Positions 1,085 to 53,509 of a DNA stretch of 64,000 nucleotides are shown one piece after another. Below the pieces are notes generated by a model, which saw only the letters and a program-made list of their open reading frames with translations, was not told where the DNA came from and searched no databases. This DNA is from Chloroflexota bacterium (GTDB lineage Bacteria > Chloroflexota > Anaerolineae > Anaerolineales > VGOW01): contig JACRBQ010000098.1 in assembly GCA_016213135.1 (NCBI GenBank), positions 6,221-70,220 on the forward strand. The letters run 5' to 3'. Both the position numbers and the translations under genes were made by a program. The stretch's first letter is position 1; the number at the start of each line of letters is the position of its first letter.

Positions 1085-1154
1085 CAGAATGCGGATTGCA
1101 GATTTCAGATTGGCGCTGCCGTTCCGAAATCCGCAATCTAAAATCTGAAATCTG
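1085..1154. repeat. junction palindrome built from CAGATTT/AAATCTG-type units
   Basis: CAGATTTCAGATT (1099-1111) is the reverse complement of AATCTGAAATCTG (1142-1154). GCGGATT (1091-1097) pairs with AATCCGC (1128-1134). It fills the argG-argH gap. Confidence 0.8.
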
Positions 1155-1156
1155 AA

Positions 1157-2611
1157 ATGAAACTCTGGGGCGGTCGTTTCGAGGGCAACATCGATCCGCT
1201 GGCGATGCGGCTGAACGCCTCGTTGGCCGTGGATCAGCGCCTGTGTGATGTGGACATCCGCGGCAGTGTGGCCTGGGCGCGGGCGCTGGCCCGGGCCGGG
1301 GTGATTGCCCCCGCCGAAGCCGAGACGCTGTGCGCCGGTCTGCAAAAGGTGTGGGCCGAGTTCAACGGTGGGGCGTTCCGATATGCGGCCGGCGACGAGG
1401 ACATTCACACTGCCGTGGAACGCCGTCTCGGCGAGATCGCCGGCCCGGTGGCGGGCAAGTTGCACACCGGGCGCAGCCGCAACGATCAGGTGGCGACGGA
1501 TTTCCGGCTGTGGCTGGCGGAGGCCATCGACGTGCTGGCGCTGCGCCTCGACCACTTGCAGGGCGCGCTGACGGCCAAGGCCGAGGCCGAGCTGGAAACC
1601 GTGCTGCCAGGTTACACCCACACCCAACGCGCCCAGCCCATCCTGTTCAGCCATTGGCTGCTGAGCCACTACTGGGCGCTGGAACGGGATCAGCAGCGGT
1701 TGGCGCAAACGCGCGCGCGGGTGATGACGATGCCGCTGGGATCAGCCGCACTCGCCGGCACAGGCTTCCCGATTGACCGGGCGGCGCTGGCCGCCGATCT
1801 GGGGTTTGAATCCATTGCCCCCAACAGCGTGGACGCCGTGGGCGACCGCGACTTTGCGGCGGAGTTTCTGTTCGACGCGGCGTTGGCGGGCATTCACCTG
1901 AGCCGCATGGCCGACACGCTGATTCTGTATTCCACCGCGGAGTTTGGCTTTGTGGAAATGAGCGACGCCTATTCCACCGGTTCCAGCATCATGCCGCAAA
2001 AGAAGAATCCCGACATGCTTGAGCTGGCGCGAGGCAAAGCCGGGACGCTGCTGGGAATGCTGACGGGTTTGTTGGCGGTGCTCAAGGGGCTGCCCTCGGC
2101 CTACGACAAGGATTTGCAGGAAGACAAAGCGCCGGTGTTTGCAGCATTCGACACGCTCGACGTGCTGCTGCCGGTGCTGGCCGGGACCGTTGCCACCATG
2201 CGAGTCAACCGCGAGCGGATGCGCGCGGCGGTGGATGCCAGTTTGCTGGCCACCGACCTCGCCGACCATTTGGTGAAGAAGGGCGTGCCCTTCCGGCAGG
2301 CGCATGGTTTGGTGGGGCGGGTGGTGCGCAAGGCGCTGGAGGCAGGCGTCAGTATGGATCAGTTGAGCGCTGCCCAGCTTCGCGAGGTGAGCGATCAGTT
2401 TGACGACGAGGCCGTGGCGGTGTTGAGCGGGGCGTCTCTGTTGGCTGGGCGCACCGTGGCCGGCGGCACGGGACTCGACTCGGTGCGGGCGCAGCTTGCC
2501 AAGGCGCGCGAACATGGCGCACACGCCCCTGCCTCGCCGGACGACACCCATTGGCCTGCCCGTCACATTGACCAAACACACTCGGAAGATATTATGCATC
2601 CTGCCTCGTGA
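1157..2611 (+). CDS. argH: argininosuccinate lyase
   Basis: MKLWGGRFEG... N-terminus, fumarate-lyase signature region GSSIMPQKKNPD. 484 aa with a ~25 aa C-terminal tail beyond the usual end. Confidence 0.95.
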   Translation: MKLWGGRFEGNIDPLAMRLNASLAVDQRLCDVDIRGSVAWARALARAGVIAPAEAETLCAGLQKVWAEFNGGAFRYAAGDEDIHTAVERRLGEIAGPVAGKLHTGRSRNDQVATDFRLWLAEAIDVLALRLDHLQGALTAKAEAELETVLPGYTHTQRAQPILFSHWLLSHYWALERDQQRLAQTRARVMTMPLGSAALAGTGFPIDRAALAADLGFESIAPNSVDAVGDRDFAAEFLFDAALAGIHLSRMADTLILYSTAEFGFVEMSDAYSTGSSIMPQKKNPDMLELARGKAGTLLGMLTGLLAVLKGLPSAYDKDLQEDKAPVFAAFDTLDVLLPVLAGTVATMRVNRERMRAAVDASLLATDLADHLVKKGVPFRQAHGLVGRVVRKALEAGVSMDQLSAAQLREVSDQFDDEAVAVLSGASLLAGRTVAGGTGLDSVRAQLAKAREHGAHAPASPDDTHWPARHIDQTHSEDIMHPAS

Positions 2612-2755
2612 CGGGTTACACGGCGCGTGATAAACTGCTGCCCATGATTGTTGCGTTGCTGTCCAGCCGTGAGTTCCGTCTTCCGAAGCGCCCACATCGG
2701 GGTCTCGGTTAGTTTGGCTTGCGTAGCGCGCGCACGAATACAGGCCACCCAACGA

Positions 2756-2787
2756 GGCCCCTCCACACGAGGGGTCTTTTATTTTTT
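2756..2787 (+). terminator. rho-independent terminator downstream of argH
   Basis: Stem CCCCTC(2758-2763)/GAGGGG(2769-2774), loop CACAC, followed by TCTTTTATTTTTT. Confidence 0.75.
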
Positions 2788-2788
2788 C

Positions 2789-2821
2789 AGACCGACGCGG
2801 TCTTTAAGACCGCGTCGGTCT
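2789..2821. repeat. perfect 15-bp-arm palindrome just upstream of the lysW RBS
   Basis: AGACCGACGCGGTCT-TTA-AGACCGCGTCGGTCT. No T-tract on either strand. Ends 5 nt before the AAAGGAG RBS of lysW. Confidence 0.85.
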
Positions 2822-2841
2822 ACAAAAAGGAGATTTTGAAA

Positions 2842-3006: not shown

Positions 3007-3058
3007 AAAATGATCGCTTCGCGCGCGGAATGATGAGTGATGAGTGATGAATGATGAT

Positions 3059-4971: not shown

Positions 4972-4985
4972 GTGTGGGGGTGAGG

Positions 4986-5044
4986 GGGTATGGGAGTGTG
5001 GGAGTATGGGTGTCGTGCGCCCATACTTCCACACTCCCACACCC
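4986..5044. repeat. junction palindrome, GTGGGAG/CTCCCAC units
   Basis: Left arm GGGTATGGGAGTGTGGGAGTATGGG (4986-5010) against right arm CCCATACTTCCACACTCCCACACCC (5020-5044). 25 positions, 2 mismatches. Confidence 0.88.
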
Positions 5045-5059
5045 AAACTGTGAAGTGCA

Positions 5060-10435: not shown

Positions 10436-10461
10436 GGGAGTGTGGGGGTGTGGGAGTGGTT

Positions 10462-10986
10462 ATGATGGTTGGCAAAGTGTGGAAGTATGGCGACGGGGTG
10501 AACACGGACGTGATCTTCCCCGGCAAATACACGTATACGTTGAAGGAGCCGTCGGAGATCGCGGCCCATGCGCTGGAAGACCTCGATCCCAATTTTGCCC
10601 GCGAAGCGCGGGCGGGTGATGTGATCGTGGCCGGGCGCAACTGGGGCAACGGCAGTTCGCGCGAGCAGGCAGTGACGGCGCTGAAGTACCGAGGCATTGC
10701 GGCAGTGGTGGCAAAGTCGTTCGCGCGGATCTATTTCCGCAACGGAATCAATCAAGGCTTGCTGCTCGTCACTTGCCCCGAAGCCGTGGATGCGGCACAG
10801 GCCGGCGACATGATTGAGATCGGTTTGCCCGCCAGCCTCATCCGACTGGGCGGGCGCGAGTTCCCCTTTCCGCCGCTCTCGCCTACTGCTCTGGGCATCA
10901 TCGAGGCCGGCGGGTTGGTGCAGCACATCCGGCGCAAGTTGGGGCTGGCGAGCACTGAGGCCGTAATCGTGAGTTCGGGGGAATGA
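10462..10986 (+). CDS. hacB: homoaconitase / 3-isopropylmalate dehydratase small subunit
   Basis: MMVGKVWKYGDGVNTDVIFPGKY..., GRNWGNGSSREQA. GGGAG RBS at 10452-10456. ORF-track start 10450 trimmed to ATG 10462. Confidence 0.88.
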   Translation: MMVGKVWKYGDGVNTDVIFPGKYTYTLKEPSEIAAHALEDLDPNFAREARAGDVIVAGRNWGNGSSREQAVTALKYRGIAAVVAKSFARIYFRNGINQGLLLVTCPEAVDAAQAGDMIEIGLPASLIRLGGREFPFPPLSPTALGIIEAGGLVQHIRRKLGLASTEAVIVSSGE

Positions 10987-10989
10987 TGA

Positions 10990-11050
10990 GTGAAACGTGA
11001 TGCGTGATGCGTGAAGAATCACGTTTCACGTTTCACGTCTCACGTGTCAC
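10990..11050. repeat. junction palindrome, GTGAAAC/GTGATGC versus TCACGTT units
   Basis: GTGAAACGTGATGCGTGATGCGTGA-AGAA-TCACGTTTCACGTTTCACGTCTCAC. 25 positions with 3 mismatches and 2 G-U pairs. Confidence 0.88.
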
Positions 11051-11067
11051 GGTCGGGAGCACAACCT

Positions 11068-11938
11068 TTGACAACCATCTGTTTGATTCCCGGCGACGGG
11101 GTGGGCCGCGAGGTGATACCGGCGGCGGCGGATGTGCTGGCCGGTTTGAGTTTGGGGCTGGAATTTGTGGAGGCGGATGCCGGGTTTGACTACTTCCAAC
11201 GCAGCGGCGAGGCGATTCCCGATGCCACACTGGCGGCCATTGAGTCGGCGGGGGTGGCGCTGTTCGGGGCCACGTCGTCGCCGTCAACCAAAGTCGAAGG
11301 CTATCGCAGCCCGATCCTGGCGATGCGTAAGGCGTTCGACCTGTACGCCAACCTGAGGCCGGTGCACTCGTTGCCCGGCCCTTTTTCGCGCCCCAATGTG
11401 GAGTTGCTGATCGTGCGCGAGAACACCGAGGGGTTGTATGCCGGGCGCGAACGGCGCGAGGGTGACACGGCCATTGCCGAGCGGGTGATTACGGCGAAGG
11501 GGTCGGAGAGGATTGCGCGAGTGGCGTTTGAGAAAGCGGAAATCAGAAGTCGGGCGCCTGAACTGCGGCGGGAAGTCAGAAGCAGGTCAACGGTCACCAT
11601 CGTTCACAAAGCGAATGTTCGGTGATATTCTGTCGGACGAGGCCGGCGCGCTAATCGGCGGGCTGGGGGTGGCTCCGTCGGCCAACGTGGGCGAGCGGGT
11701 GACCGTGTTCGAGCCGGTGCACGGTTCCGCGCCGGACATTGCCGGGCAGGGCATTGCCAACCCCATCGGCGCGATTCTCTCGGCGGCGATGCTGCTCGAA
11801 CATATCGGGTTGGGGGGTGAAGCGGCCCGGGTACGGCAGGCGGTGGACACCGTGTTAGCGGCGCGGGTGTGGCCGCGAGAGCTGGGCGGCAAGGCCACCA
11901 CGGCTGAGGTGGTGCGGTCTATTCTTCAAAATTTGTGA
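11068..11938 (+). pseudogene. homoisocitrate/isopropylmalate dehydrogenase, disrupted by an internal deletion plus frameshift
   Basis: Frame 1 reads ...CLIPGDGVGREVIP...LIVRENTEGLY...[10 protein letters not shown]-stop (TGA 11623-11625). Frame 2 resumes at 11615 as [18 protein letters not shown]...[19 protein letters not shown]. The roughly 50 residues that separate HKANV from (N)xxGDILSD in family members are missing. Probable start is TTG 11068, after GGGAG. Confidence 0.75.
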
Positions 11939-17122: not shown

Positions 17123-18385
17123 TCAGGCGTTGGCCGGTTTATCGGGCGCGGCTTCCTTATCCAACTCACTTCGGTCGGTCGCCATCGGCGAGCGCTCTAA
17201 CGCCTCGGCCATTTGCTCGCGCAGGGTGGCGCGGTTGGGTTTGCGCGTGCCGAGGTTGCGCAACACGCCAACCAGATAGTCGGTCATGTCTTTGGTGATC
17301 TTCTTCAGCGATTCGCTGCTCAGGCGTTCGCCTTTTTCGAACCACACGATGGAGGCGTAGCCCATGACCACGGTAGTGGAGGCGGCGATGGCCGCTCCCA
17401 GCACCCAGCCGGGCGGACCGCCGAGCTTGCTCAATTCCTGAAACAGTGTGCGCCCCAGAAACCCCAGCCCAAATGTGATCACCAATTCCTTTGCCCGTTC
17501 GGGGGTGATGGCGTAGTTGTAGATGCGGGCGATGCCCAACACCATCGAGGATTGCACGGCCAACAGCGGAATCACGTCCACAATGGGCAGGGGCGCGAGG
17601 GCAATGGCCGCAGAGGTGGAGGCGGCCCCGGTGATGGCCGTCCACGCCAGCCGCCAACGGAACTCGGGCAGGGCGCGGCCCAACGCGGCCACGATCTCCG
17701 GTTCGGCTTTGGCGATAGCCACCAGCACCCGGTCTACGTTCTTGCCGTCTTTGGCGGCAATGGCGACGATGTTGTCGGGCGGCAATCGCAAATTGGCGGC
17801 GGCGCGGTCAATCACCCGCCCGGCGTCGCGGCGGGCGAGATCGATTTTGTTGAGCACCACGATGTAGGGCTTGCCGAGCGCGATCAGTTCGGCGAACAAT
17901 TCCTGCTCGGTGCGTTTGACGCCCTGAATGGCGTCGAAGACGATGATGAGAAAGTCCGCCTCGCGGGCCGCCGTCAGCGCCCGTTCCTTCTCGGCGTCGC
18001 CCACTTCGCCCACCGCGTCTGCGCCGGGGGTGTCCACCAGCCGGAAGAGGCCGGCGTCGGCCAGTTGATTGACGCGGGTGGTCCCCGGCACCGGGCTGAC
18101 CTCCGCTCGATCGGCCTTGGCGCGGATCATTTGATTGTAGAGGGTGGACTTGCCCACGTTGGCCGGGCCGACAATGGCAACCGACTGTTTTTCGCCGAAC
18201 GCGATTTTGAACTGGGTGAGCGAGAGGCCCAGCAGCATCCGCCACAGGGTGAGGTCGCCGGGCAAGTACGCCAGCGAGTTCTGCAACTCTTGCTGCACGG
18301 GCGGCGGCAACTGCGCCCACGCGGTTTTGAGCTGGCTCTGCGAGTTGGCGGGGAATTCTTTGAGCAGGTCGTCGAAGGAGGGCAT
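17123..18385 (-). CDS. GTP-binding protein with C-terminal membrane (DUF697-like) region
   Basis: G1 GPANVGKST, G3 DTPG, G4 NKID. Hydrophobic C-terminal half. Confidence 0.75.
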   Translation of the reverse strand: MPSFDDLLKEFPANSQSQLKTAWAQLPPPVQQELQNSLAYLPGDLTLWRMLLGLSLTQFKIAFGEKQSVAIVGPANVGKSTLYNQMIRAKADRAEVSPVPGTTRVNQLADAGLFRLVDTPGADAVGEVGDAEKERALTAAREADFLIIVFDAIQGVKRTEQELFAELIALGKPYIVVLNKIDLARRDAGRVIDRAAANLRLPPDNIVAIAAKDGKNVDRVLVAIAKAEPEIVAALGRALPEFRWRLAWTAITGAASTSAAIALAPLPIVDVIPLLAVQSSMVLGIARIYNYAITPERAKELVITFGLGFLGRTLFQELSKLGGPPGWVLGAAIAASTTVVMGYASIVWFEKGERLSSESLKKITKDMTDYLVGVLRNLGTRKPNRATLREQMAEALERSPMATDRSELDKEAAPDKPANA

Positions 18386-18447
18386 CGCTCGACATTATAG
18401 CCGATGGCGGATGGGGAGCGGGCAGTGGTTAGTGGATAATGGGCAGC

Positions 18448-18486
18448 GGTCGGTGGTCAGTGATTAGCGGCCACTGACCACCGACC
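18448..18486. repeat. perfect 15-bp hairpin downstream of gltB
   Basis: GGTCGGTGGTCAGTG (18448-18462) against CACTGACCACCGACC (18472-18486). No U-tract. Confidence 0.85.
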
Positions 18487-18500
18487 AGCGAGCAACAAGG

Positions 18501-21500
18501 TCAGCGTATAACTTCTTCCACCCGTGTCTGGATGGGTGCCGGCTCCGCCGCGGCGGTGATGGGCATCACCTTTGCGAAGAGGCCCGGATCGAAGTGCGCG
18601 ACGAGTGCGTTTGCCCGCGCGCTGCCGGTCAGCGCGGCGTGGCGGGCCACTTGCCGATGCAGCCATGCGGCATCGTCTTCGGTGAGCGGCGCGGTGGTCA
18701 CCAGAGTGGAGTTGATGAGTTCCTCGACGGGCAAAGGTTGACCATCCGTCAACACATAGGCTACGCCGCCGCTCATGCCTGCGCCAAAGTTTCGCCCAAA
18801 GCTGCCGAGGATTACCACCGCGCCGCCGGTCATGTACTCGCAGCCGTGGTCGCCCACGCCCTCGACTACTGCCGTGGCTCCCGAGTTGCGCACGGCAAAC
18901 CGCTCGCCCGCGCGCCCGGCGATGAACACCGCGCCGCTCGTCGCGCCGTAAAGGATGGCGTTGCCCGCCAGCACCGGGTGCCGGCCGTGGTAATCGGGCG
19001 AGGGGGCAATGACGATCTGCCCCCCGGCCAGCCCTTTGCCCACGTAATCGTTGGCCTCGCCGCGCAAATAAAAATGCAGGCCGGGCGTGGCAAACGCCCC
19101 GAACGATTGCCCGGCGCTGCCGCGCGCCCGCACGTTGATCGTGTCGGCGGGCAACCCGCCGGCCCCGTGCCGCCGGATGACGGCATTCGCCACGGGCGCG
19201 CCAAAGGTGCGCGTGCGGTTGGTCACCGGATATTTCACGTCCACCCGGTCGCCGCATTCCACGGCGCTCATCACTTCGGCCAGCAGGGCGCGGTTGAGCG
19301 GGGCCGCGCTGATAAGCAGGTTGGGGTGGCGCTCGTAGCGTCGCGGGCCGGGGGCGTCGGGCGGGGTGATGAGGCGGCTGAGGTCCACTGAGGGATTGCC
19401 CGGCAGACCCGGCGTCACCTGCTTCAGCAGTTCCACGCGGCCAACGGCTTCGTGCAGTGAGGCGAGACTCAATTGCCCCAATATCTCGCGCACTTCTTCG
19501 GCCACGAAACGCATGAAGGCCATGAGGCGTTCGGGCGGGGTGTGGAACTTGGCGCGCAGTTTGGGGTCTTGCGTGGCAATGCCCGCCGGGCAGGTATTGA
19601 GGTGGCAGGCGCGGGCCATCACGCAGCCCAGGGCCACCGCGGCCGCCGTGCCAAACGAAAACTCGTCCGCGCCCAGCAGCGCGGCCATCATCACGTCGCG
19701 CCCGGTGCGCAGGCCGCCGTCGGTGCGCAGCCGCACGCGCCCGCGCAGGCCGCTGTTCACCAGCGCGTGTTGGGTGTCGGCCAGGCCAAGCTCCCACGCC
19801 ACCCCGGCATACTTCACCGACGAGAGCGGTGAGGCGCCCGTGCCGCCGTTGTGCCCGCTGATGAGGATGATGTCGGCCCCGGCTTTGGCCACCCCGGCGG
19901 CAATGGTACCCACCCCGGCCTGCGCCACCAGTTTCACCGAGATGGCCGCGCGGGGGTTGATCTGCCGCAGGTCGTAGATCAACTGCGCCAGGTCTTCGAT
20001 GCTGTAGATGTCGTGATGCGGCGGCGGCGAGATGAGCATGATGCCGGGCTGCGCGTGTCGGATGGCGGCAATTTCGGCGGTGACTTTGTTGGAGGGCAAC
20101 TGGCCGCCCTCGCCAGGTTTGGAGCCTTGCGCCATTTTGATTTGCAACTCGTCGGCGCTGATGAGGTAACTGGGCGTGACGCCGAAACGGGCGGAGGCCA
20201 CTTGTTTGATCCGGTCGTTGCGCTCGACGGCGTAACGCGCGGGGTCTTCGCCGCCCTCGCCGGAATTGCTCCCTGCTCCCAACCGGTTCATGGCAATCGC
20301 CATTGCCTCGTGGGCCTCTTTGGACAGCGCCCCGTGCGACATTGCGGCGGTGGAAAAGCGGCGGACGATGGAGGCTACGGGTTCGACTATGGGCGGCCCA
20401 TCGATCGGTCCGGCTCGTAAGGGCGATTCATGAATCGCCCCTACCTCATCGATCGCCCGTACCGAAAAGTCCAGCAGATCGCGAAAGTCAACGGGCGGGC
20501 GCGCGTGGACGAGGCGGCTGTATTCTTTGTAGCGGGCATAGTCGCCAGCCTGTAGCGCGTTGTGCAGGGCCTTGACCACTGCCGGGCTGAAGGCGTGCGT
20601 TTCGCCATCGCGTTTGAATTTGTAGTAGCCCGGGGAATCGAGCAGCGAGGCTGCGTTATGCGGGGTGGCGGCAAAGGCGCGGGCGTGCCACGCCAGCACG
20701 ATTTTGCCGATGTCGGCCAGACCCAGCCCGCCGAGGTGGGCCGGGGTGCCCTCGAAGTGTTCGGCCACGACGGCGTTGGCCAGGCCGATGACTTCGAAAG
20801 TTTGCGCGCCGCAATAAGCGTCCACGGTAGTGATGCCTATTTTGGACATGATTTTGAAGAGGCCGTGTTCGGCGGCGTGCAGGTAGTTGCGTATGGCAAC
20901 CGAGGGGGTGATGGGGGCTTCGGCGAGACGGGCGGCGGTGGCAATGGCGAGGTAGGGGTTGATGGCATTGGCCCCGTATCCCAGCAGCGCGGCGAAGTGG
21001 TGCACGTCGCGCGGTTCGCCGCTTTCGACGATGAGGCTGACTCGCCCGCGTAATCCAATCCGCAGTAAGTGATGATGCACGGCGCTGACGGCCAGCAGCG
21101 AGGGGATGAAGGTGCGGGCCCAGTCCACGCCCACGTCGGAGAGGATGATAAGTTGCGCGCCGGATCGGGCTGCGGACTCGGCGCGGGCGCACAGCAGGTG
21201 AAGGTTGTGGGCCAGGCCGTTGGGCCGGGCGCAGACGGTGACAGGCGTCAACGTGGATAACGTGGTGGGCCGCAGAGGGGCGTCACGGCGGAGATGTTCG
21301 AGGGTGGCATCGGCGAGATAGGGGCTTTCCAGCTCGATCACCCGCGCGTGCGCGGGGGCTTCGTCCAACACATTAGGCCGCGCACCCAGCCGCACGCGCA
21401 GCGACATGACGTACGTTTCGCGGAGGTAGTCGATGGGCGGGTTGGTCACTTCCGCGAAGCGCTGGCGGAAGTACGAGAAGAGGGGGCGCGGTTTGGGCGA

Positions 21501-23135: not shown

Positions 23136-23393
23136 AGACGGTATTGAGTATCATAGGGACAACCCCGATACGGCGGAAGATACAAACTGGATGGAGTTGC
23201 GAGGGCTGCGCTTGGGGAGGTTGTATCAGTGAAAGCGGACAAGCGAGGGGCAGCGAAGTTGGGGCAGGTTGAATGGGGCATCCTTCGACTGCCGCCCGTG
23301 AAAAGACGCGTGCTTTCGCCGGTGTGGCCGCCGCCCAATTAGGCGGCTGGGCGCAATCGGATTAGCGCACTGCCGAGCCGGGCGCAGAATAGG

Positions 23394-24137: not shown

Positions 24138-24241
24138 ATGTGATCCTTCCTCTATGGGCAAAGCCAGCGGCGAGCGTCAAGGTGGAAACTCGCTGCATAT
24201 TACTCCCATGTTAGAGTGTTGGGAAGTGATCAATGTCATGT

Positions 24242-28840: not shown

Positions 28841-28876
28841 GGTCGCGGGTCGCTGGTTGTTGGCCGCTGGCCACCG
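28841..28876. repeat. left arm of a split palindrome (GGTCGCT/GGTTGTT heptamers) flanking the four-helix-bundle gene
   Basis: GGTCGCG GGTCGCT GGTTGTT GGCCGCT GGCCACC. GGTCGCTGGTTGTTGG (28849-28864) pairs with CCAACAACCAACGACC (29277-29292), 15 of 16 positions. Confidence 0.75.
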
Positions 28877-28885
28877 GAGAATGCC

Positions 28886-29266: not shown

Positions 29267-29292
29267 CTACTAACCACCAACAACCAACGACC
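29254..29292. repeat. right arm of the split palindrome (AACCACC/AACAACC heptamers), ending at the hisG ATG
   Basis: ...CTACTAACCACCAACAACCAACGACC-ATG(hisG). Reverse complement of the left arm core. Confidence 0.75.
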
Positions 29293-32674: not shown

Positions 32675-32676
32675 TT

Positions 32677-32742
32677 TCTGATTGTTGATTGCTGATTCTT
32701 GATTGAGTTCAAATCAGCAATCAGCAATCAGCAATCAACAAT
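32677..32742. repeat. junction palindrome, ATTGCTG/CAGCAAT units
   Basis: TCTGATTGTTGATTGCTGATTCTTGATTGAG-TTC-AAATCAGCAATCAGCAATCAGCAATCAACAAT. The right arm runs into the hisB ATG. Confidence 0.85.
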
Positions 32743-33328
32743 GAGAATATCAACCATCCACCGCCACACCAATGAGACCGACATCACGCTCACGCTGTCG
32801 CTCGACGGCTCGGGCAAGCACGACATTCAGACGGGCGTGGGCTTCCTCGATCATTTGCTGACGCACATTGCCGTGCACGGGCTGTTCGATCTCACCGTGC
32901 AGGCCGTGGGTGACCTGCACGTTGATACGCACCACACCATCGAGGACACGGCGCTGGCGCTGGGGCAGGCGTTCGATGAGGCTCTCGGCGACCGCAGCGG
33001 CATTGTGCGTATGGGGTCGGCCTACGTGCCGATGGACGAGTCGCTGGCGTTTGTGGCGGTGGACTTTTCGGGGCGGCCGTGCGCGGTGACGCAGGGGCAA
33101 TGGCACGGGCCGGTGATCGGGCAAGTGCCAACGACCCTGATTCCGCACTTCATCGAATCGTTCGCCGCGACTGCCCGGGCCAACGTTCACGCCAATGTGC
33201 TGTATGGCCGCGACGATCACCATCAGGCCGAAGCGTTGTTCAAAGCCCTGGGCCGCACGCTCGATGCGGCGACGATGATTGACCCTCGCCGGGCGGGAAA
33301 CGTGCCTTCGACAAAGGGGAGCCTGTGA
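32741..33328 (+). CDS. hisB: imidazoleglycerol-phosphate dehydratase (monofunctional, no phosphatase domain)
   Basis: [16 protein letters not shown]...GFLDHLL...HHTIED...[12 protein letters not shown]. 195 aa from Met15 of the ORF. Confidence 0.93.
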
Positions 33329-33384
33329 AGTGAAACGTGAAACGTGATTCGTCACGTATCACGCATTACGTGTTACGCATCACG
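33325..33384. repeat. junction palindrome, GTGAAAC/TCACG units
   Basis: GTGAAGTGAAACGTGAAACGTGA-TTC-GTCACGTATCACGCATTACGTGTTACGCATCACG (imperfect). Confidence 0.8.
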
Positions 33385-33391
33385 ACTAATT

Positions 33392-33994: not shown

Positions 33995-34716
33995 GCGCGT
34001 TCACGATTTATCCGGCGATTGATTTGCGCGCCGGCCGCGTGGTGCGATTAGCGCAGGGCGACCCGGCGCGGCTAACGGTGTATGGCGAAGACCCGGCGGC
34101 CACAGCTCGTCGGTGGCGCGACGAGGGGGCCGCGTGGCTGCACGTGGTGAATCTCGACGGCGCGTTTGGCGAAACTGCCGATGCGAACAGACGCGCGCTG
34201 GAGGAGATTGTTTCGGTGGGATTGAACGTGCAGTTCGGCGGCGGCCTGCGCGACGGGGCCGCCCTTCGGCGCGTGATGCAGTTGGGTGTGGCCCGCGCCG
34301 TGATCGGCACTGCTGCAGTGGAAACGCCCGCGCTGGTGGATGAGGCGCTAGCCGAGTTTGGCGCGGAGCGCGTTGCGGTGGGCGTGGACGCGCGCGAGGG
34401 CCGCGTGCGGTTGCGCGGCTGGGCTGAGGAGTCGGCGGTGACGGCGCTCGACCTTGCGCGGCGATTGCGCGGGCAGGGGGTGACGCGAATCATTTTCACC
34501 GACGTGGCGCGCGACGGAATGGGCGCGGGGGTGAACGTGGCCGCCACCGCCGAACTGGCCGCCGCCTCCGGGCTGGCCGTGATCGCCAGTGGCGGCGTAG
34601 CCACTGCCGATGACGTTCGCCGCGTGCGCGAAGCCGCCCTCGACGGAGTGATCATCGGACGCGCCCTCTACGAAGGCCACATTGATCTCCACCTTCTTCT
34701 GACCTCCGACCTCTGA
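33991..34716 (+). CDS. hisA: ProFAR isomerase
   Basis: [20 protein letters not shown]..., ...IASGGV... ATGA overlap with hisH. Confidence 0.92.
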
Positions 34717-34774
34717 CCTCTCACTTCCCTCTTCTCTCTTCTCACTTCCCTCTTCCCTTTTCTCTCTTCCTCCC
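34690..34774. repeat. 85-nt polypyrimidine tandem tract (CTCTTCC/CTGACCT units), one arm only
   Basis: CTGACCTCCGACCTCTGACCTCTCACTTCCCTCTTCTCTCTTCTCACTTCCCTCTTCCCTTTTCTCTCTTCCTCCC ends 1 nt before the hisF ATG. Its first part encodes the hisA C-terminus ...LLLTSDL. Confidence 0.85.
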
Positions 34775-35744: not shown

Positions 35745-35852
35745 GTACATCGAAGAGAAATCTGCTGTAGGCGGACACGAAGTCACGAAGTCACGGAGCC
35801 ACTAAGTTTTCTTTGTGGCTTTGGGCCGTCGTGCCTTGGTGGCACAAAGGAA

Positions 35853-37975: not shown

Positions 37976-38044
37976 GATAAACGCTGATTTGATTAAGATC
38001 AAAAAGATCAGCGTTTATCTCATTTTTCAGCGTTTATCAGCGTG
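37976..38044. repeat. AT-rich inverted/direct repeat cluster between proB and proA
   Basis: GATAAACGCTGAT (37976-37988) against ATCAGCGTTTATC (38007-38019), perfect 13 bp. A further TCAGCGTTTATCAGCG copy lies at 38027-42. A perfect TATAAT lies at 37968-37973. Confidence 0.8.
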
Positions 38045-39401: not shown

Positions 39402-39683
39402 ATGTCTTTCCTCTACACCCTCCAATCCATCATCCAGGATCGCAGAGCCAACCCCCGGCCCGGCTCGTACACCGCCGGCCTCTTCGCCGCCGGTGAAGAT
39501 GAAATCGTGAAGAAAGTCGGCGAAGAGGCCGTCGAAGTCATCCTGGCCGTCAAAGGGCAGGGCGACGAGCGCATCATCTCCGAAACCGCCGACCTGCTGT
39601 ATCACACCCTCGTCCTCCTCGCCCAGCGTGGCCTCACCCTTGAACAAGTGGAAGCGGAACTCGAACGTAGGCATGGGAAATGA
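39402..39683 (+). CDS. hisE: phosphoribosyl-ATP pyrophosphohydrolase (monofunctional)
   Basis: [28 protein letters not shown]...[13 protein letters not shown]. Confidence 0.9.
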
Positions 39684-39774
39684 AAAATGGCAAATGGCGA
39701 ATGAGAAATGAACATCGACGTTCTTAATACTCCAAACTCCAAACTCAAAACTCAAAACTCAAAACTCAAAACTC
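39675..39774. repeat. two-part tandem array: AAATGR units followed by CTCAAAA units
   Basis: GGGAAATGAAAAATGGCAAATGGCGAATGAGAAATGAA ... ACTCCAAACTCCAAACTCAAAACTCAAAACTCAAAACTCAAAACTC. The two halves are not complementary to each other. Confidence 0.85.
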
Positions 39775-42838: not shown

Positions 42839-42850
42839 GTTTGGGAATAC

Positions 42851-42890
42851 GGGTGTGTGGGAGTGCGGGAGAGTCCACTCCCACACACCC
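42851..42890. repeat. junction palindrome, GTGGGAG/CTCCCAC units, perfect 15-bp arms
   Basis: GGGTGTGTGGGAGTG (42851-42865) against CACTCCCACACACCC (42876-42890). Confidence 0.9.
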
Positions 42891-42902
42891 CTACCCCCAC
42901 AC

Positions 42903-44099
<1,197 letters not shown>

Positions 44100-44738: not shown

Positions 44739-44812
44739 GGAATTCAGTAGCCAGTAGCCAGTAGCCAGAAGTATCAACTTCTGAATTCTGACTCCTGGCT
44801 TCTGACTCCTGC
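44739..44812. repeat. junction palindrome, GTAGCCA/CAGAAGT versus ACTTCTG units
   Basis: GAATTCAGTAGCCAGTAGCCAGTAGCCAGAAGT-ATCA-ACTTCTGAATTCTGACTCCTGGCTTCTGACTCCTGCC (imperfect). The right arm encodes the trpC C-terminus. Confidence 0.8.
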
Positions 44813-45574
44813 CAGTTCCCTCACCTTCGTCCCCACGTCGCCCGCGCGCACAAGGGCCTCGCCCACCAGCACCGCGTCCACGCCCAACCCGGCTGCGTCA
44901 GCGCGAGAGCCGATGCCGCTCTCGGCCACCACGGTGATGCCCGGTGGCAGCAGGGGGCGCAGCGTGCGCGTGGTGTCGAGGCTCACGCTAAAGTCGCGCA
45001 GGTCGCGGTTGTTGATGCCCACCAACGTTGCACCGCAGTTCAGCGCGCGCGCCAGTTCGTCGCGGCGGTGCACTTCCACCAGCGCGGCCAGGCCCAACTT
45101 CCCGGCACGCGCCTTCAACGACAGCAGTTCGTCATTGCTTAACCCGGTCACGATGAGCAGTACCGCGTCGGCCCCGGCGGCGCGAGCCTCGTAAAGCTGA
45201 TACTCGTCGCAGATGAATTCCTTTCGCAGCAGCGGCAAGCCAAGGTTCAACGCGGCGATCTGCCGCAGGTGTTCGAGCGAGCCGCCGAAGTATTTTTCGT
45301 CGGTGAGCACCGAGATGGCCGCCGCGCCGTTGGCGGCGTAAGTCTGCGCCAGCCGCACGGGGGCGAAGTCCGTCACCATCACGCCTTTGGAGGGCGAGCC
45401 TTTTTTTACTTCGGCGATCAGGGCCGGGCCGGGGGCGCGTTGGAGCGCAGCGGCGAAATCCAGCGGTGGGCGGGCCGTTTTGATCTGCCGTATCAGTTCG
45501 ATGACAGGCACGCGCTGCTTTTGCGCGGCCACCTCGACCCATTTGTGGGCGAAGATTTCGGAGAGGATAGTCAT
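44774..45574 (-). CDS. trpC: indole-3-glycerol phosphate synthase
   Basis: MTILSEIFAHKWVEV..., LIAEVKKGSPSKG, LVGINNRDL. Trimmed to Met60 of the ORF. Confidence 0.92.
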   Translation of the reverse strand: MTILSEIFAHKWVEVAAQKQRVPVIELIRQIKTARPPLDFAAALQRAPGPALIAEVKKGSPSKGVMVTDFAPVRLAQTYAANGAAAISVLTDEKYFGGSLEHLRQIAALNLGLPLLRKEFICDEYQLYEARAAGADAVLLIVTGLSNDELLSLKARAGKLGLAALVEVHRRDELARALNCGATLVGINNRDLRDFSVSLDTTRTLRPLLPPGITVVAESGIGSRADAAGLGVDAVLVGEALVRAGDVGTKVRELAGVRSQESEFRS

Positions 45575-46609: not shown

Positions 46610-47182
46610 TTAGCCCGCCTTCATCGCTAGAAAGTTTTTCAGTATTGCTTTTCCGCCGTCGGTGAGAATGCTTTCGGGATGAAACTGCACGCCGAAGGTG
46701 GGGTGCCGCCGGTGGCGCAGGGCCATCACTTCGCCATCGTCGGTGAAGGCTTGCGTTTCGAGGCAATCGGGCAGCGGCTCTTCGACGATGAGCGAGTGGT
46801 AGCGCGTGGCGTTGAACGGCGAGGGCAGGCCGTGAAACAGGTCTTGCCCGTGGTGGTAGATGTGCGACGTTTTGCCGTGCATGAGGCGGGGCGCGCGGGC
46901 CACGCTGCCGCCGAATACGGCCCCGATGCACTGGTGGCCCAGGCACACGCCCAGCACGGGAATCTTTCCGGTGAAGCGGCGGATGGCCTCGTTGGAGATG
47001 CCACTGTCGCGTAAGGGGTCGCCGGGGCCGGGCGAGATGACAAGGTGGCTGGGTGACAGGGTGACAAGGTGATCAAGCGTGATTTGATCGTTTCGGAAAA
47101 CCTGAATCTCTGCGCCCAGTTCTCCGAAGTATTGAACAAGGTTGTAAGTGAAAGAGTCGTAGTTATCGATCAATATCAACAT
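46610..47182 (-). CDS. trpG: anthranilate synthase component II (glutamine amidotransferase)
   Basis: [18 protein letters not shown]..., GVCLGHQ (catalytic Cys), QFHPES. Confidence 0.93.
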
Positions 47183-48247: not shown

Positions 48248-48260
48248 GTTGATCCTCGAG

Positions 48261-48322
48261 AAATTGCTGATTGCTGATTTGTGATTGCTGATTGACAATC
48301 GGCAATCAACAATCACAAATTT
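48261..48322. repeat. junction palindrome, ATTGCTG/CAATC units
   Basis: AAATTGCTGATTGCTGATTTGTGATTGCTGATTG-A-CAATCGGCAATCAACAATCACAAATTT. Overlaps the trpE stop codon. Confidence 0.82.
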
Positions 48323-49794
48323 CCTTCCGCTATTTCAACAGCCTTGATCAAAGCTCGCGCTTTGTTCATCGTCTCTTCGTATTCCTTCGCCGGATCAGAG
48401 TCGGCGACGATGCCTGCCCCGGCCTGCACGCTCACCGTTTGGCCGCGCATGTGCAGGGTGCGAATAGTGATGCAGGTGTCCATCGAGCCGTCGAAGCCTA
48501 CGTAGCCCACCAGCCCGGCGTACGAGCCGCGCGGTTCGCCTTCCAGTTCGGCGATGATTTCCATGGCTCGCACTTTGGGCGCGCCGCTCACGGTTCCCGC
48601 CGGGAAGGTGGCCCGGATGAGATCGTAAGCGTCCCGCCCCGATCCCAGTTCGCCGCTGACGTGCGAGACGATGTGCATCACGTGCGAGTATCGCTCCACC
48701 AACATCAATTCCGAGACCTTCACCGAGCCGTAGTTGCACACGCGCCCGATGTCGTTGCGGCCCAGGTCCACCAGCATCACGTGCTCGGCGCGCTCTTTGG
48801 GGTCGGCCAGCAGTTCGGTTTCGTTGGCGGCGTCGGACTGCAGGGTGGCGCCGCGCGGGCGGGTTCCGGCAATGGGGCGCACCACGGCGGTGCGGCCTTC
48901 GAGGCGGGTGAGGATTTCCGGCGATGCGCCGATGAGGTGCAGCGGCTCCCCGGCCAGCGATCCGAAGTCGAAGAAGAACATGTATGGCGACGGGTTGAGC
49001 CGTCGCAAGCTGCGATAGATGTCGAAGGGGCCGGCCGTGGTTTGGCGCGAGAGGCGTTGCGAGAGCACCACTTGAAAAATGTCGCCGGCGGCGATGTGCT
49101 CTTTGGCGCGGCGCACCTTCTCTTCAAACGCCTCGCGGGTGATGTTGGATTGCACGGCGTTGGCGGCAGCCATGCCATGGGGTGCGGGGGCAGGGGAGGG
49201 GGCGGCGGTTTGCAACCGCTCGGCCAGCGCGGTCAACCGGGTCTCGGCGGCGGCCCGCTCCGTGGCGGGGACGGTGGTCATCAGCAGCGTGCGGCCACGG
49301 GTGTGGTCGAAGGCCACGATGGTATCGGCCAGCAAAAAGATTCCGTCGGGCAGTTCGCCGTGGGGCAGGTTGAGGCGCGGCTCGAAGAACTGCACGGTTT
49401 CGTAACCGAGATAGCCCACCATGCCGCCGATGAAGCGCGGCAGGCCGGGCGTGTGCTCCACGGCGTAGCCCGACAGTTCGGCGCGAATGGCCTCCAGCGG
49501 ATCGGCGTCGGGGGCCAGCGCGGCCGTGGTCACCTGCCCGTCTGCGTGGCGCTCGATGATGCGCCCGCGCAGCACCAGCGCCACTTTTGGCTCCACGCCG
49601 ATGAACGAGTAGCGGCCCACCTGCTCGCCGCCGGTGACGCTTTCTAGCAGGAAGCTGGGCGACCCCCCGCCGGACAATTTGAGGTACACCGATACCGGGG
49701 TGTCGAGGTCGCTGGCGATCTCGCGCGTGACGGTGAGGTGAGAGTCGGAGCTGAGAGTTGGAGTGAGAGTGAGAGTATCACTATTGAGCAGCAT
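48313..49794 (-). CDS. trpE: anthranilate synthase component I
   Basis: LESV.GG ([16 protein letters not shown]), ...[15 protein letters not shown]... Start at Met49 of the ORF, with a GGGAGA RBS. Confidence 0.93.
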
Positions 49795-49887: not shown

Positions 49888-50246
49888 AAAAAAGATCGCT
49901 TTCATCGTTGGGACGAAAGCGATCTTCCGTGGTGCCACCCAATTTAGGCCGGTCGCTCTTCAACAAAAAATCCGCCCCACATGCGACGGATTTGCAAAAG
50001 CCAGCCTCACTCGTTGCGGGTACGGCCTTGCGGCGATACCCTCAGCCCTGATAACGGTGGCGTTTCCGGCGTGGGCTACTTGGCTTGTGGCCGTTCGCTT
50101 GGCAACTCAGAGGTCCATTCGGCGATAGCGTGTGCGTCGGGCTTGCACCGAGTGCGCGGTGCGGCTTGCCGCCCGTACCCTGCTCGACTCTCTGCGCACC
50201 GTTTCAGCGCGTACTCGTCCTCGTCTCAGTCTTTGATTATTCGATT
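49888..50246 (-). promoter_or_regulatory. T-box riboswitch leader, Trp specifier (UGG)
   Basis: On the - strand: AGAGAG (50193-50188); specifier loop GAA-UGG-A (UGG at 50117-50115); F-box CCGUUA (50057-50052); T-box sequence AAAUUGGGUGGCACCACGG (49944-49927); then terminator GAAGAUCGCUUUC...GAAAGCGAUCUU + UUUU (49927-49888). Confidence 0.85.
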
Positions 50247-50252
50247 GGCGAC

Positions 50253-50282: not shown

Positions 50283-50356
50283 GAGGAAGTGCTTGTGCGC
50301 TCCGCACAGACTTGCGGCCATGGGCGCGTCCACTTTGCACAACGACCGCCGCTGAA

Positions 50357-50422
50357 CTTCAAACTCCAAACTCCAAACTCAACATTCAACATTCGTCATT
50401 TTCCATTTTCCATTTACCATCC
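50357..50422. repeat. two-part tandem array: CCAAACT units, then CCATTTT units
   Basis: CTTCAAACTCCAAACTCCAAACTCAACATTCAACATTCGTCATTTTCCATTTTCCATTTACCATCC. Shares both unit types with 39675-39774, one of them inverted. Confidence 0.85.
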
Positions 50423-52415: not shown

Positions 52416-52416
52416 A

Positions 52417-53373
52417 TCAATACGCCGAGGCGCTGTCCAGCACCCTCATCTCCTCCGCCGTCAGCCTCAGCCCCGAGGCCCCAAGGCTATCTGCCAGTTG
52501 CGCGGGCGTGTTCGCGCCGATGATGACTGCGGCCAGGTTGTCTTTGCTGAGCAGCCAGCCCAGCGCCATTTGGCCGGGTGTGCGGCCCCGCGCCTTGCCC
52601 AGCACTTGCAAGTTGTCCAGCAAATCGAAGTTCTTGTCGTTGAGCAATTGCTGCACACTGCTGCTGCGTTTACTGGCGGGCAGCGGCTCGCCGCGCCGGT
52701 ATTTTCCGGTGAGGAACCCGCGCCCCAGCGGGCTGTAGGGAATGACGGCCATGCCGAACTGCCGCACCGCCTCGTAGCCGTCCATCTCGAATTTCTTCCG
52801 TTCCACCAGCGAGTAGTGCGGCTGGATGGTGAGGTATTCGCTGACCCCGGCGGCCCGTGAGGCCTGCACGGCGGCAGTCAGTTGCGCTTTGTTGTAATTT
52901 GAGCAACCCACGAACCGCGCCTTGCTCTGCTTCACCAAATCGTCGAGTGTGCGCATCGTTTCTTCAATGGGCGTGGCCTCGTCCGGCGAATGGGTCTGGT
53001 AAAGGTCAATCACCTCAGTCTGCAAGCGGCGCAGCGAGTCCTCCACCGCCCGCACTATGTGCGCCCGGCCCAGCCCCTCGCCATCGGGGCCATCCCACAT
53101 GCGCCCGCGCACCTTGGTCGCCAGCACGATCTTGTCGCGGTTCCCCTTGCGCTTCATCCACTCGCCGATGATGGTTTCGGCCTCGCCGCCCTGCAGCCCC
53201 TCGGCCCAACGCGAGTAAATGTCTGCGGTGTCGATGAAGTTGCCCCCGGCCTCGAAGAATGCGTCCAGCACCGCATACGAACTGGCTTCGTCCGTAGTCC
53301 ATTTGAACTGCATCGTGCCGAGGCAGATATCGGAAACCTTGAGGCCGGTCTTGCCGAGTGTGCGATATTCCAT
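52417..53373 (-). CDS. aldo/keto reductase
   Basis: MEYRTLGKTGLKVSDICLGTM..., FIDTADIYS, ...ATKV... Confidence 0.9.
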   Translation of the reverse strand: MEYRTLGKTGLKVSDICLGTMQFKWTTDEASSYAVLDAFFEAGGNFIDTADIYSRWAEGLQGGEAETIIGEWMKRKGNRDKIVLATKVRGRMWDGPDGEGLGRAHIVRAVEDSLRRLQTEVIDLYQTHSPDEATPIEETMRTLDDLVKQSKARFVGCSNYNKAQLTAAVQASRAAGVSEYLTIQPHYSLVERKKFEMDGYEAVRQFGMAVIPYSPLGRGFLTGKYRRGEPLPASKRSSSVQQLLNDKNFDLLDNLQVLGKARGRTPGQMALGWLLSKDNLAAVIIGANTPAQLADSLGASGLRLTAEEMRVLDSASAY

Positions 53374-53441
53374 AGTGGTCTCTCCTCTGAGTCAATCCCC
53401 TTCATCGTTCGTCCGTGGGCCTTATCGGGAATAAAGACTCA

Positions 53442-53509
53442 GCCACGAATTACACTAATGAACACGAATTGCATCAGGCTTCTTCGTGAAAATTCGTGTC
53501 ATTCGTGGC
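53442..53509. repeat. palindrome, CACGAAT/ATTCGTG units
   Basis: GCCACGAATTACACTAATGAACACGAATT ... CGTGAAAATTCGTGTCATTCGTGGC. Flanked by TATCGGGAATAA/TTATTCCCAATA. Confidence 0.8.

Follow-up and report, generated by a model that had tools for sequence, protein, structure and literature searches.

Inverted heptamer arrays as hairpins at gene junctions of an Anaerolineales genome and related bacteria

What are the palindromes that occupy gene junctions in the arginine/lysine, histidine and tryptophan operons of an uncultured Chloroflexota bacterium? The stretch in question, hereafter the window, comprises 64 kb of contig JACRBQ010000098.1 (assembly GCA_016213135.1, positions 6,221 to 70,220). 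A first-pass annotation of its sequence had noticed that each arm of these palindromes is itself a tandem array of 6-8 nt units, and had proposed either RNA processing or stability elements or the footprint of an unrecognised repeat-generating mechanism. We found that the palindromes are inverted short-tandem arrays, mostly of heptamers, of a class known from the short tandemly repeated repetitive (STRR) sequences and from the GGGAATC arrays of Xanthomonas. The idea of an unrecognised repeat is not supported, since heptameric repeats, inverted pairs included, have already been described (PMC2670836, PMC4692102, PMC6749651).

Structure, position and spread of the junction hairpins

The palindromes were recovered by an ungapped hairpin scan, with arms periodic at 7 or 8 nt, and their RNA folds were compared with 200 dinucleotide shuffles per element. 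All positions listed in the first-pass annotation hold the sequence described there, and in folding and arm periodicity they go far beyond chance. The window contains 11-12 hairpins with tandem 7-8 nt arms (ΔG -21 to -55 kcal/mol, z -2.2 to -7.5), whose stems measure 15-34 bp and whose loops of 0-16 nt contain no open reading frame (ORF), with the exception of the cassette at 28850-29292 described below. Nine of the ten hairpins named earlier fold at -28 to -55 kcal/mol (z -3.4 to -7.5) with none of the 200 shuffles as good, while at the weak hisB-hisH element (33325-33391) 8 of 200 shuffles fold equally well. Together with about nine one-armed arrays, the hairpins are spread over gene junctions in the arg/lys, his and trp operons; the 39-nt lysJ-hcs spacer, previously singled out as empty, is indeed unstructured (z +0.8). 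An Rfam search returned no known RNA family for any of the hairpins.

The arrays are predominantly of period 7. In the window, Tandem Repeats Finder gave 20, 7 and 5 arrays of periods 7, 6 and 8, respectively. Our first sample, made up of 80 hisB loci (1.17 Mb) of Anaerolineales genomes, gave 198, 20 and 32, respectively, and 52 of period 9, and 159 loci from other phyla gave 181 arrays of period 7 vs 17 each of periods 6 and 8. This dominance of heptamers holds in some 300 related loci, which belong to Chloroflexota, Acidobacteriota and Planctomycetota. Hairpins with tandem 7- or 8-nt arms number 66 in the hisB loci plus the window, and 32 more bring the total to about 100. In a second sample, 80 loci around trpB, the same elements were found in Caldilineae, Ardenticatenia, Roseilinea-type Chloroflexota and Acidobacteriota, and essentially none in Dehalococcoidia and Gammaproteobacteria. 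Depending on the genome, the hisB loci hold between 0 and 9 arrays per 10 kb.

The hairpins are found mainly after stop codons, in agreement with the junction enrichment that had been expected. Among 71 carrier loci they occupy 69 of 883 co-directional, 8 of 93 convergent and 1 of 93 divergent junctions, i.e. ~8% of after-stop vs 1% of divergent junctions (Fisher p 0.011 for hairpins and 0.018 for arrays), an enrichment per junction that was not significant in the first 80 loci alone and became so once 80 further loci were added. Divergent spacers are ~3 times longer, yet poorest in hairpins. The density of arrays as a whole is 18 times higher for co-directional spacers than for coding sequence (1.46 vs 0.08 per kb). 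A hairpin typically starts between -8 and +14 nt from the upstream stop codon, sometimes within the gene, and ends 10-25 nt 5' of the next start, so that the AAGGAG Shine-Dalgarno sequence comes after it; in the alignment of hisC-hisB junctions this sequence stays outside the stem. Consistent with the earlier observation that a U-tract is missing, a T-tract follows only 3 of 77 heptamer hairpins at co-directional junctions vs 23-38% of plain hairpins (23% in the same junction class). The heptamer hairpins there thus lack the U-tract directly after a GC-rich stem that marks an intrinsic terminator, and a T-tract is present at 3 of the 8 convergent-junction hairpins.

The arms have a clear polarity. 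The 5' arm has more G than C in 76 cases vs 8 (p 5e-15), a property that is identical read on either strand. The rule for one-armed arrays is truly strand-specific and mirrors this polarity: on the sense strand, G-rich arrays prevail after stops (21 vs 6) and C-rich arrays before starts (23 vs 15). The 3' arms are poor in NTG start triplets (0.14 vs 0.62 per unit), and one-armed pre-start arrays are fully unstructured in RNA folding. Most simply, the polarity may reflect selection at the level of translation, which would favour extra stops after a gene and, ahead of the following gene, disfavour G-runs that resemble a Shine-Dalgarno sequence as well as spurious starts. In five loci (L006, L013, L023, L030 and L074) one unit is used at consecutive junctions of an operon, with the C-rich arm 5' and the complementary G-rich arm 3' of a gene; judged from the sequence, this would allow alternative long-range pairing around a whole cistron.

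The first-pass annotation had stated that the unit differs at each locus and that no word is shared. Units are indeed many, but GTGGGAG (x3), GTGAAAC (x2-3) and GATTGCT/GATTGCAG (x3) are repeated inside the window, and unit families are shared with other genomes. After collapsing rotations and strands, 140 non-coding arrays reduce to 78 distinct units, where ~129 would be expected for random heptamers of the same composition, and GCTGATT, GCGTATT, AACGAGT, GAAGGTT and AATGATG each recur across several junctions and genomes. A limited repertoire that recurs within and between genomes therefore replaces the absence of a shared word. Single-linkage clustering of the units chained everything into one cluster and was uninformative. 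Between copies of the same unit in the window, similarity is confined to the array and the adjoining stop codon, with no boundaries like those of miniature inverted-repeat transposable elements (MITEs), no conserved flanks and no target duplications.

Orthologous junctions show how the elements change. Depending on the relative, the hisC-hisB junction is a tight overlap, a plain hairpin or a heptamer hairpin of at least 8 unit families. In one clade the unit has drifted from GTCGAAA to GTTGAAG, with a matching change in the opposite arm (TTTCGAC and CTTCAAC), and RNAalifold finds changes on both sides at 5 of 11 predicted pairs of this junction. Thus, pairing is preserved across relatives, which is the part of the arm-pairing test proposed earlier that turned out positive. 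A search for copy-number variants at strain level found no contig with the exact protein and no exact flank pattern in metagenomes, the best metagenome relative being 79% identical. A candidate signal of register-specific complementarity, with 45 of 49 cases in register over unit-shifted, was rejected, as it was gone once the best-register choice had been controlled by unit permutation.

S23p cassettes and possible explanations of the elements

One element of the window differs from the others in that its loop holds a gene. Just past the terminator of the his attenuator, two complementary heptamer arrays enclose a gene of the S23p family (PF05635/TIGR02436), with the second array ending at hisG. 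The product scores 137.3 bits with NF008911 and 125.9 bits with TIGR02436. The arms form a duplex of -27.9 kcal/mol vs -16.1±3.3 for shuffled arms, and the minimum free energy (MFE) fold of 28841-29300 pairs both arrays. In some relatives the site between attenuator and hisG holds empty heptamer hairpins. At two other loci, L088 and L002, complementary arrays lie 100-330 nt apart with no recognisable cargo ORF between them. The hairpin at 18448-18486 has a unit that resembles, by eye, that of the two arrays flanking this PF05635 gene.

PF05635 genes are nested in stems of this kind beyond the window, too. We collected 80 loci with PF05635 homologues from Planctomycetota, Acidobacteriota, Gemmatimonadota, Proteobacteria, Bacteroidota and Chloroflexota. 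The 100-nt flanks of the gene are complementary at a score of at least 14 in 31 of 79 loci, vs control values of 5.5% (mismatched flank pairs) and 5.6% (neighbouring genes). The arms of these paired loci are of period 7 in 28 of 31 cases, and the G-rich arm comes first in 27. In a scan of 72,556 plasmids, 24 of 27 PF05635 matches were cyanobacterial, and finished plasmids of Nostoc edaphicum and Anabaena sp. 90 carry PF05635 copies between perfect inverted heptamer arrays. The cassette architecture is therefore not an artefact of metagenome-assembled genomes.

A hot spot in Pirellulales illustrates the variety of such insertions. At one operon junction (L241-L319, from Pirellulales and relatives), in the spacer 5' of an oxidoreductase gene that is usually at 2501, the contents differ between closely related species; some have S23p cassettes with GGGGTTN or GTGGTTA units, where a one-base change is matched in the opposite arm, and L254 has a divergent S23p gene with CGAATGN units. 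One variant holds a remnant of a GxxExxY (TIGR04256) gene between CACGAAT arrays, and another an AAA-ATPase/DUF3226 pair adjoining a GGATGAA array. Further variants have, by species, an empty 8-mer hairpin, an extra insert of ~1.8 kb, or nothing.

A parallel exists in rRNA. In Coxiella burnetii, the 23S rRNA intervening sequence (IVS) contains an S23p ORF and a 28-bp terminal stem (Warrier et al. 2016, PMC4990558). It carries the GACAGAT heptamer in 2-3 copies, variable between strains, and its stem is cut by RNase III, with the cuts mapped and the 5' cut at the first GACAGAT repeat; such cleavage is documented for other rRNA IVSs as well, and ORF-less IVSs also exist (PMC4990558). Because the same kind of stem brackets the S23p gene here, a reading in terms of RNase III-type processing suggests itself. 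Our overall explanation, to which we give about an even chance of being right, is that these known-class arrays act as ORF-less, IVS-like stem-loops of mRNA that serve as RNase III-type processing or stability sites. In this explanation, polycistronic RNA would be transcribed through the elements and would fold just after stop codons, mostly inside operons, into non-terminator stem-loops of 15-30 bp, with a G/U-rich 5' arm and a C/A-rich 3' arm ending ~10-25 nt before the next start. The full form would be the heptamer-array stem with the S23p/PF05635 gene in its loop, and the junction hairpins its ORF-less versions, whether the empty hairpins arose from cassettes or the reverse. Cutting of the RNase III type might then split or buffer operon transcripts and so affect expression, while arrays would lengthen and shorten by 7-nt replication slippage and concerted evolution would keep both arms complementary. 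On present analysis RNA processing or stability appears the most plausible function, and the junction hairpins are probably RNase III substrates.

Several results weigh against this explanation. Many Anaerolineales genomes among the 80 hisB loci hold no such arrays. Turnover is fast: the comparison of orthologous junctions proposed earlier did reveal gain and loss, with each his junction carrying an element in some relatives and closed to a tight overlap in others, and even congeneric Villigracilis species differ at the hisC-hisB junction. The excess of G.U-compatible mismatches on the sense strand (45 vs 34) is not significant, and sense RNA is only weakly more stable (33 vs 20, Wilcoxon p 0.096), so that selection at the RNA level is not demonstrated. 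Permuting the unit order in one arm leaves pairing equally good (0.862 vs 0.857); variants inside an element are therefore not specifically compensated, and in this respect the arm-pairing test failed. Different phyla share exact units no more often than chance would predict (8 observed vs 6.6±2.3 expected), which makes the resemblances of CACGAAT and CACGAAGT between the window and Planctomycetes anecdotal. About 60% of PF05635 genes have no detectable flanking stem, a single PF05635 gene occurs in 2.5 Mb holding more than 100 hairpins, empty hairpins vastly outnumber cassettes, and descent of the hairpins from cassettes is not shown.

Among the alternatives, a neutral by-product is possible, if on the unlikely side. 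A lineage-specific bias towards 7-nt slippage, following the polymerase-footprint idea of Mrazek 2007 as quoted in PMC4692102, would seed arrays wherever tolerated, and template switching in quasi-palindromes would produce inverted copies and make them symmetrical; the hairpins would be without RNA function and survive where they are harmless, between stop and start. This origin stays a serious rival because of the fast turnover at every junction, the patchiness among related genomes, the absence of strand- or register-specific compensation and the excess of empty hairpins; one-armed arrays are also about as common as hairpins, and arrays spill into coding termini. Harmlessness alone, however, does not account for divergent spacers, which are 3 times longer and carry a hairpin in 1 of 93 cases vs 77 of 976, nor for the strong sense-strand polarity of arms and one-armed arrays with their tight registration to the stop codon, the complementarity kept while the unit changes between species, and the specific nesting of PF05635. 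Somewhat more doubtful is a selfish origin, in which the arrays would be the cis-acting stems of a hitherto unrecognised family of cross-phylum stem-loop cassettes, the intervening sequences of mRNAs and rRNAs alike, with S23p/PF05635 or GxxExxY in the loop, ORF-less forms at junctions, and excision by RNase III making insertion harmless. If true, it would explain the excess of heptamers (STRR) in cyanobacteria, Xanthomonas, Chloroflexota, Acidobacteriota and Planctomycetota, and would give a role to the uncharacterised S23p family. REP/REPIN- or MITE-like elements spread by a RAYT (REP-associated tyrosine transposase) or by IS200/IS605 TnpA would likewise yield dispersed junction palindromes with the same unit family at several loci per genome, and the Pirellulales junction taken repeatedly by different cassettes fits them as well. 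We think such mobile elements very unlikely, as there is no single consensus, same-unit copies have neither conserved flanks nor target duplications, each locus has its own copy number and unit variants, and the 64-kb window contains no RAYT (Y1 transposase), other transposase or reverse transcriptase gene.

The remaining alternatives concern function. Translational coupling or insulation, which we regard as improbable, would have the terminating ribosome melt the stem and free the C/A-rich, start-poor 3' arm as a standby or S1 platform; one-armed C-rich arrays might act likewise constitutively. The placement of the hairpin, from at or within the stop codon to just 5' of the Shine-Dalgarno sequence, the depletion of NTG in 3' arms and the lack of structure of pre-start arrays suit this idea. 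Coupling has been proposed for STRR hairpins of cyanobacteria (PMC2670836), and binding of ribosomal protein S1 or cold-shock proteins (CSPs) for TAACTGA repeats (PMC4679880). However, the Shine-Dalgarno sequence is not sequestered, convergent junctions, with no downstream cistron, are equally occupied (8 of 93), and hairpins also occur in 5' leaders and around inserted genes. We give very little weight to U-tract-less terminators or attenuators, or to anti-Rho structures, that would set operon polarity. Strong GC-containing stems at gene ends and the T-tracts at three of eight convergent hairpins speak for them, and a G-rich arm made first would hide the C-rich arm from Rho once the latter is made; but a T-tract accompanies only 4% of hairpins at co-directional junctions, the genome has canonical hairpin-plus-T terminators at operon ends and in its his attenuator and trp T-box, and the hairpins sit between genes of single pathways that require co-expression. 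The least probable reading is that the single-stranded repeat matters rather than the hairpin, as G-quadruplex (G4) or as a protein-binding array with, e.g., one cold-shock or S1 domain per heptamer. GGGAGTRT arms do have four G3 tracts, the heptamers of other phyla are predominantly G-rich, the repeats of Xanthomonas and Nostoc have been the subject of G4 studies (PMC4692102), and CspB binds heptamers (PMC4679880). Most Anaerolineales units (GATTGCT, GTGAAAC, GCGTATT, GTCGAAA), on the other hand, cannot form G4, and the complementary arm would compete with a single-strand binder.

Whichever origin holds, elements in uncultured Anaerolineales and several phyla follow consistent rules: they lie after stops, have the G-rich arm first, lack a U-tract and have arms that co-vary. 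To our knowledge, neither an origin nor a function has gained acceptance for heptamer repeats, on record since 1990, or for their inverted pairs, on record since 2015. If the S23p link holds, widespread processing sites inside operon RNAs would become predictable from sequence, and a large family of 'hypothetical' four-helix-bundle genes would gain a context. If it fails, the elements would still clearly mark a lineage-specific process of mutation by which operon spacers and the ends of proteins are reshaped.

Elements and ordinary signals of the window

The elements of the window are listed in Table 1. Its GC content is 64%, and the HisB encoded there reaches at most 85% identity with proteins from uncultured genomes of Anaerolineales (Chloroflexota). 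According to Pfam annotation, argG (2-1075) and argH (1157-2611) precede a LysW-type lysine/arginine cluster with lysX, semialdehyde dehydrogenase, kinase, methyltransferase and aminotransferase genes, followed by homocitrate synthase, two aconitase-family subunits, Iso_dh and an M20 peptidase. The his operon is hisG-D-C-B-H-A-F plus PRA-CH, with PRA-PH further on, and the trp operon on the - strand consists of trpE, the Trp-tRNA synthetase gene and then trpG-D-C-F-B-A. The Rfam scan found no rRNA in the window.

Table 1. Junction hairpins, one-armed arrays and the S23p cassette of the window. Elements missing from the first-pass annotation are marked as new; ΔG in kcal/mol.
Positions	Strand	Element	Location and remarks	Fold
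1078-1161	+	Hairpin, 7-nt units ATTGCAG/ATTTCAG and complement	argG-argH	1076-1161: ΔG -28.1, z -3.5
3031-3057	+	One-armed, TGATGAG x3.9	lysW-lysX spacer	
4986-5044	+	Hairpin, 8-nt units GGGAGTRT	lysY-like semialdehyde dehydrogenase / lysZ-like kinase	4972-5059: ΔG -54.8, z -6.7
10436-10458	+	One-armed, G-rich GGGAGTGT x2.9	Fills spacer between large and small aconitase-family subunits	
10990-11050	+	Hairpin, 7-nt units GTGAWRC / TCACGTN	Aconitase small subunit to Iso_dh	10987-11060: ΔG -33.0, z -3.4
18448-18486	-	Perfect 15-bp hairpin, GGTCGGT GGTCAGT G	Glutamate synthase (18501-23105) / GTPase (17123-18385)	18440-18495: ΔG -34.6, z -6.4
28850-28885	+	Long-range stem, 5' arm, G-rich, GGTCGCG GGTCGCT GGTTGTT GGCCGCT GGCCACC	Just past his attenuator terminator; new (with 29267-29292)	
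28886-29266	+	Cargo gene, PF05635 / TIGR02436	Four-helix-bundle '23S rRNA intervening-sequence protein' (S23p, Avd-like); E 5e-39	
29267-29292	+	Long-range stem, 3' arm, C/A-rich, AACCACC AACAACC AACGACC	Ends at hisG start codon; new (with 28850-28885)	
32676-32747	+	Hairpin, 7-nt units TGATTGY / CAATCAG	hisC-hisB	32675-32750: ΔG -36.1, z -7.5
33325-33384	+	Weak hairpin or array pair, 7-nt units GTGAAAC / TCACGNN	hisB-hisH	33325-33391: ΔG -21.4, z -2.2
34698-34770	+	One-armed, pyrimidine TCTGACC, CTTCCCT	Spans hisA stop, reaches hisF start	Unstructured, MFE 0
35768-35850	+	Hairpin, 8-nt units CACGAAGT / CTTNGTGG	hisF / PRA-CH gene; new	ΔG -35.2, z -3.6
37976-38019	+	Hairpin	New	z -4.3
39673-39774	+	Two one-armed arrays	AAATGGC-type right after PRA-PH stop, ACTCAAA x6.6 right before next start; new	Unstructured, z -0.8
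42839-42902	-	Hairpin, GTGGGAG-type units	trpB-trpA	ΔG -45.7, z -6.2
44070-44096	-	Array, TCCAAC on sense strand	5' end of trpB	
44739-44815	-	Hairpin, CAGAAGY / CAGTAGC units	trpC-trpF; 5' arm encodes TrpC end ...RSQESEFRS	ΔG -37.5, z -5.7
47038-47082	-	C-rich 8-nt array, CCTTGTCA on sense strand	Near trpG 5' end	Unstructured
48255-48325	-	Hairpin, 7-nt units GATTGYY / CAATCAN	trpE / Trp-tRNA synthetase gene	ΔG -27.8, z -6.0
49733-49776	-	C-rich array, TCTCAC on sense strand	5' end of trpE, downstream of T-box leader; new	
50355-50420	-	Arrays straddling stop of glycogen debranching enzyme	TGGAGTT (G-rich) after stop, ...NGKWKMTNVEC-coding arrays before; 50355-50380 new	
53436-53515	.	Hairpin, CACGAAT-type units	Divergent spacer, aldo-keto reductase (-) / M20 peptidase (+)	ΔG -29.8, z -5.5

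Some entries need comment. The CACGAAT-type hairpin had been listed at 53442-53509 among the gene junctions; by the gene calls it is divergent intergenic and not inside an operon. At 37976-38043 (+), between a glutamate-5-kinase-like gene and an aldehyde dehydrogenase gene, the hairpin is accompanied by extra direct copies of a unit of ~10 nt, ATCAGCGTTT, i.e. a longer period in the same architecture. Arrays reach into coding ends in TrpC (44774-44811, -), the debranching enzyme (50379-50420, -) and HisA (34698-34716, +), whose C-terminal peptides had been read correctly; they encode the last 6-12 residues, outside the Pfam domain ends. Repeat growth thus remodels protein C-termini. The TGATGAG array of the lysW-lysX spacer looks like an expanded stop/start overlap motif. 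Related AATGATG arrays occur at the hisB-hisH junction of 8 genomes; in L035, L040, L044, L061, L073, L075 and L078 one-armed arrays of this kind lie at locus positions of about 10580-10610. Such one-armed arrays fill short spacers and put stops and starts in all frames, and resemble ATGA/TGATG stop-start overlaps that have expanded in tandem.

The window also contains ordinary signals. Canonical hairpin-plus-T terminators are found at operon ends (2754-2828, 57115-57147 and 63705-63748) and within leaders. The his leader (28719-28837, +), 5' of hisG, contains a short ORF, MWPAIAFPHHHFPQVFPDRRTG, followed by a canonical terminator (28809-28837), and relatives have the same terminator with longer runs of His codons; this would be classical leader-peptide attenuation in Chloroflexota. 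A T-box leader lies 5' of trpE (49906-50236, -), scoring 63.2 bits (E 2e-13), below the Rfam gathering score of 93; the motif AAATTGGGTGGCACCACGG lies within it, and a canonical terminator (49888-49926) comes next. A structured and conserved motif, GGTGGTCTCGATAC ... CTACTCGACCACC, lies ~60-130 nt 5' of hisB or hisG in a subset of Anaerolineales (L025, L034, L050, L061, L064, L067, L070 and L075) and is not a heptamer element. The Iso_dh gene (homoisocitrate/isopropylmalate dehydrogenase) is broken into overlapping ORFs (11083-11625 and 11615-11938, +) that cover profile positions 4-190 and 241-346, which may be due to a frameshift, a sequencing error or a pseudogene. Between the glutamate synthase and ETF genes, 772 nt (23106-23877) are without a confident gene call; this region has no Rfam match, and the ORF at 23394-24161 (-) has no Pfam match.

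Comparison with known systems

The earlier exclusion of REP/BIME elements, CRISPR and canonical terminators stands. Like intrinsic terminators, the hairpins are stable stem-loops 3' of genes; unlike them, 96% lack a U-tract, their stems are two to three times longer, and canonical terminators coexist with them in the window. Their units are contiguous, without the spacers of CRISPR. Like repetitive extragenic palindromic (REP) sequences and the related BIMEs and REPINs, they are short extragenic palindromes at junctions, and REPs have been implicated in mRNA stabilisation (PMC3116915, PMC3733652). However, REP families have one consensus of 20-40 nt each and a RAYT, whereas the arms here are internally tandem and use dozens of units.

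Heptamers in direct orientation are also known. Chloroflexus aurantiacus has (GATAGRA)n satellites (PMC6749651), and TAACTGA repeats of Beggiatoaceae, cyanobacteria and Bacteroidetes have been proposed to act post-transcriptionally (MacGregor 2015, PMC4679880). Like TAACTGA, the elements described here are abundant intergenic heptamers with strand polarity relative to genes and a patchy distribution across phyla. TAACTGA, however, is one unit, nearly always direct with a single inverted case, and lies immediately 5' of starts, whereas our elements follow stops.

The resemblance to STRR sequences consists in 7-bp tandem units in intergenic or intercistronic positions, an excess of period 7, strong intergenic enrichment and the ability to form hairpins, although STRR hosts are AT-rich heterocystous cyanobacteria and the host here is a member of Anaerolineales with 64% GC. 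The STRR families are said to have been defined by Mazel in 1990 by the units CCCCAGT, TTGGTCA and CAACAGT. None of these is among the recurrent units of the window and its relatives; the elements therefore belong to the broad heptamer class only, and not to the named cyanobacterial families. The Nostoc units ATTGCGA and TAGGGGTG resemble units found here. In cyanobacteria, STRR heptamers form hairpins at hupS-hupL and upstream of hoxW, with transcript stability as the other proposal beside coupling and a function 'still not known' (PMC2670836).

With the Coxiella IVS, the cassette at 28850-29292 shares a terminal inverted-repeat stem, heptamer repeats and an S23p/PF05635 ORF in the loop, and the stem lengths found here agree with the inverted repeats of ~20 bp or more of IVSs, whose ORF is optional. 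The Coxiella IVS, however, sits at the tip of an rRNA helix, whereas all elements here lie between protein-coding genes or in mRNA leaders and are mostly ORF-less with short loops. They are thus IVS-like in their working at most, and not rRNA IVSs. We found no paper that generalises the link between S23p and heptamer stems, and none that describes heptamer junction hairpins in Anaerolineae.

A further match is found in Xanthomonas. X. campestris and X. axonopodis have ~185 GGGAATC arrays, of which 70-75 inverted (convergent) pairs can form stem-loops; the arrays are 89-93% intergenic, lie 28 nt from the upstream vs 160 nt from the downstream ORF, for the most part separate co-directional genes (with 16% at convergent and 7-8% at divergent junctions), and differ in length and sequence between close species (Rehm et al. 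2015, PMC4692102). The same paper quotes Mrazek 2007 on over-represented heptameric simple sequence repeats in many bacteria and on polymerase slippage as their explanation. The elements of Anaerolineales likewise are convergent, complementary heptamer arrays close to the upstream ORF, with the same junction-class statistics. Unlike Xanthomonas, which has essentially one G-rich unit genome-wide and for which no link to S23p genes is reported (PMC4692102), this genome draws on numerous unit families, of which the majority cannot form G4. What is new here is the multiplicity of units per genome in Anaerolineales and the association of such arrays with S23p cassettes.

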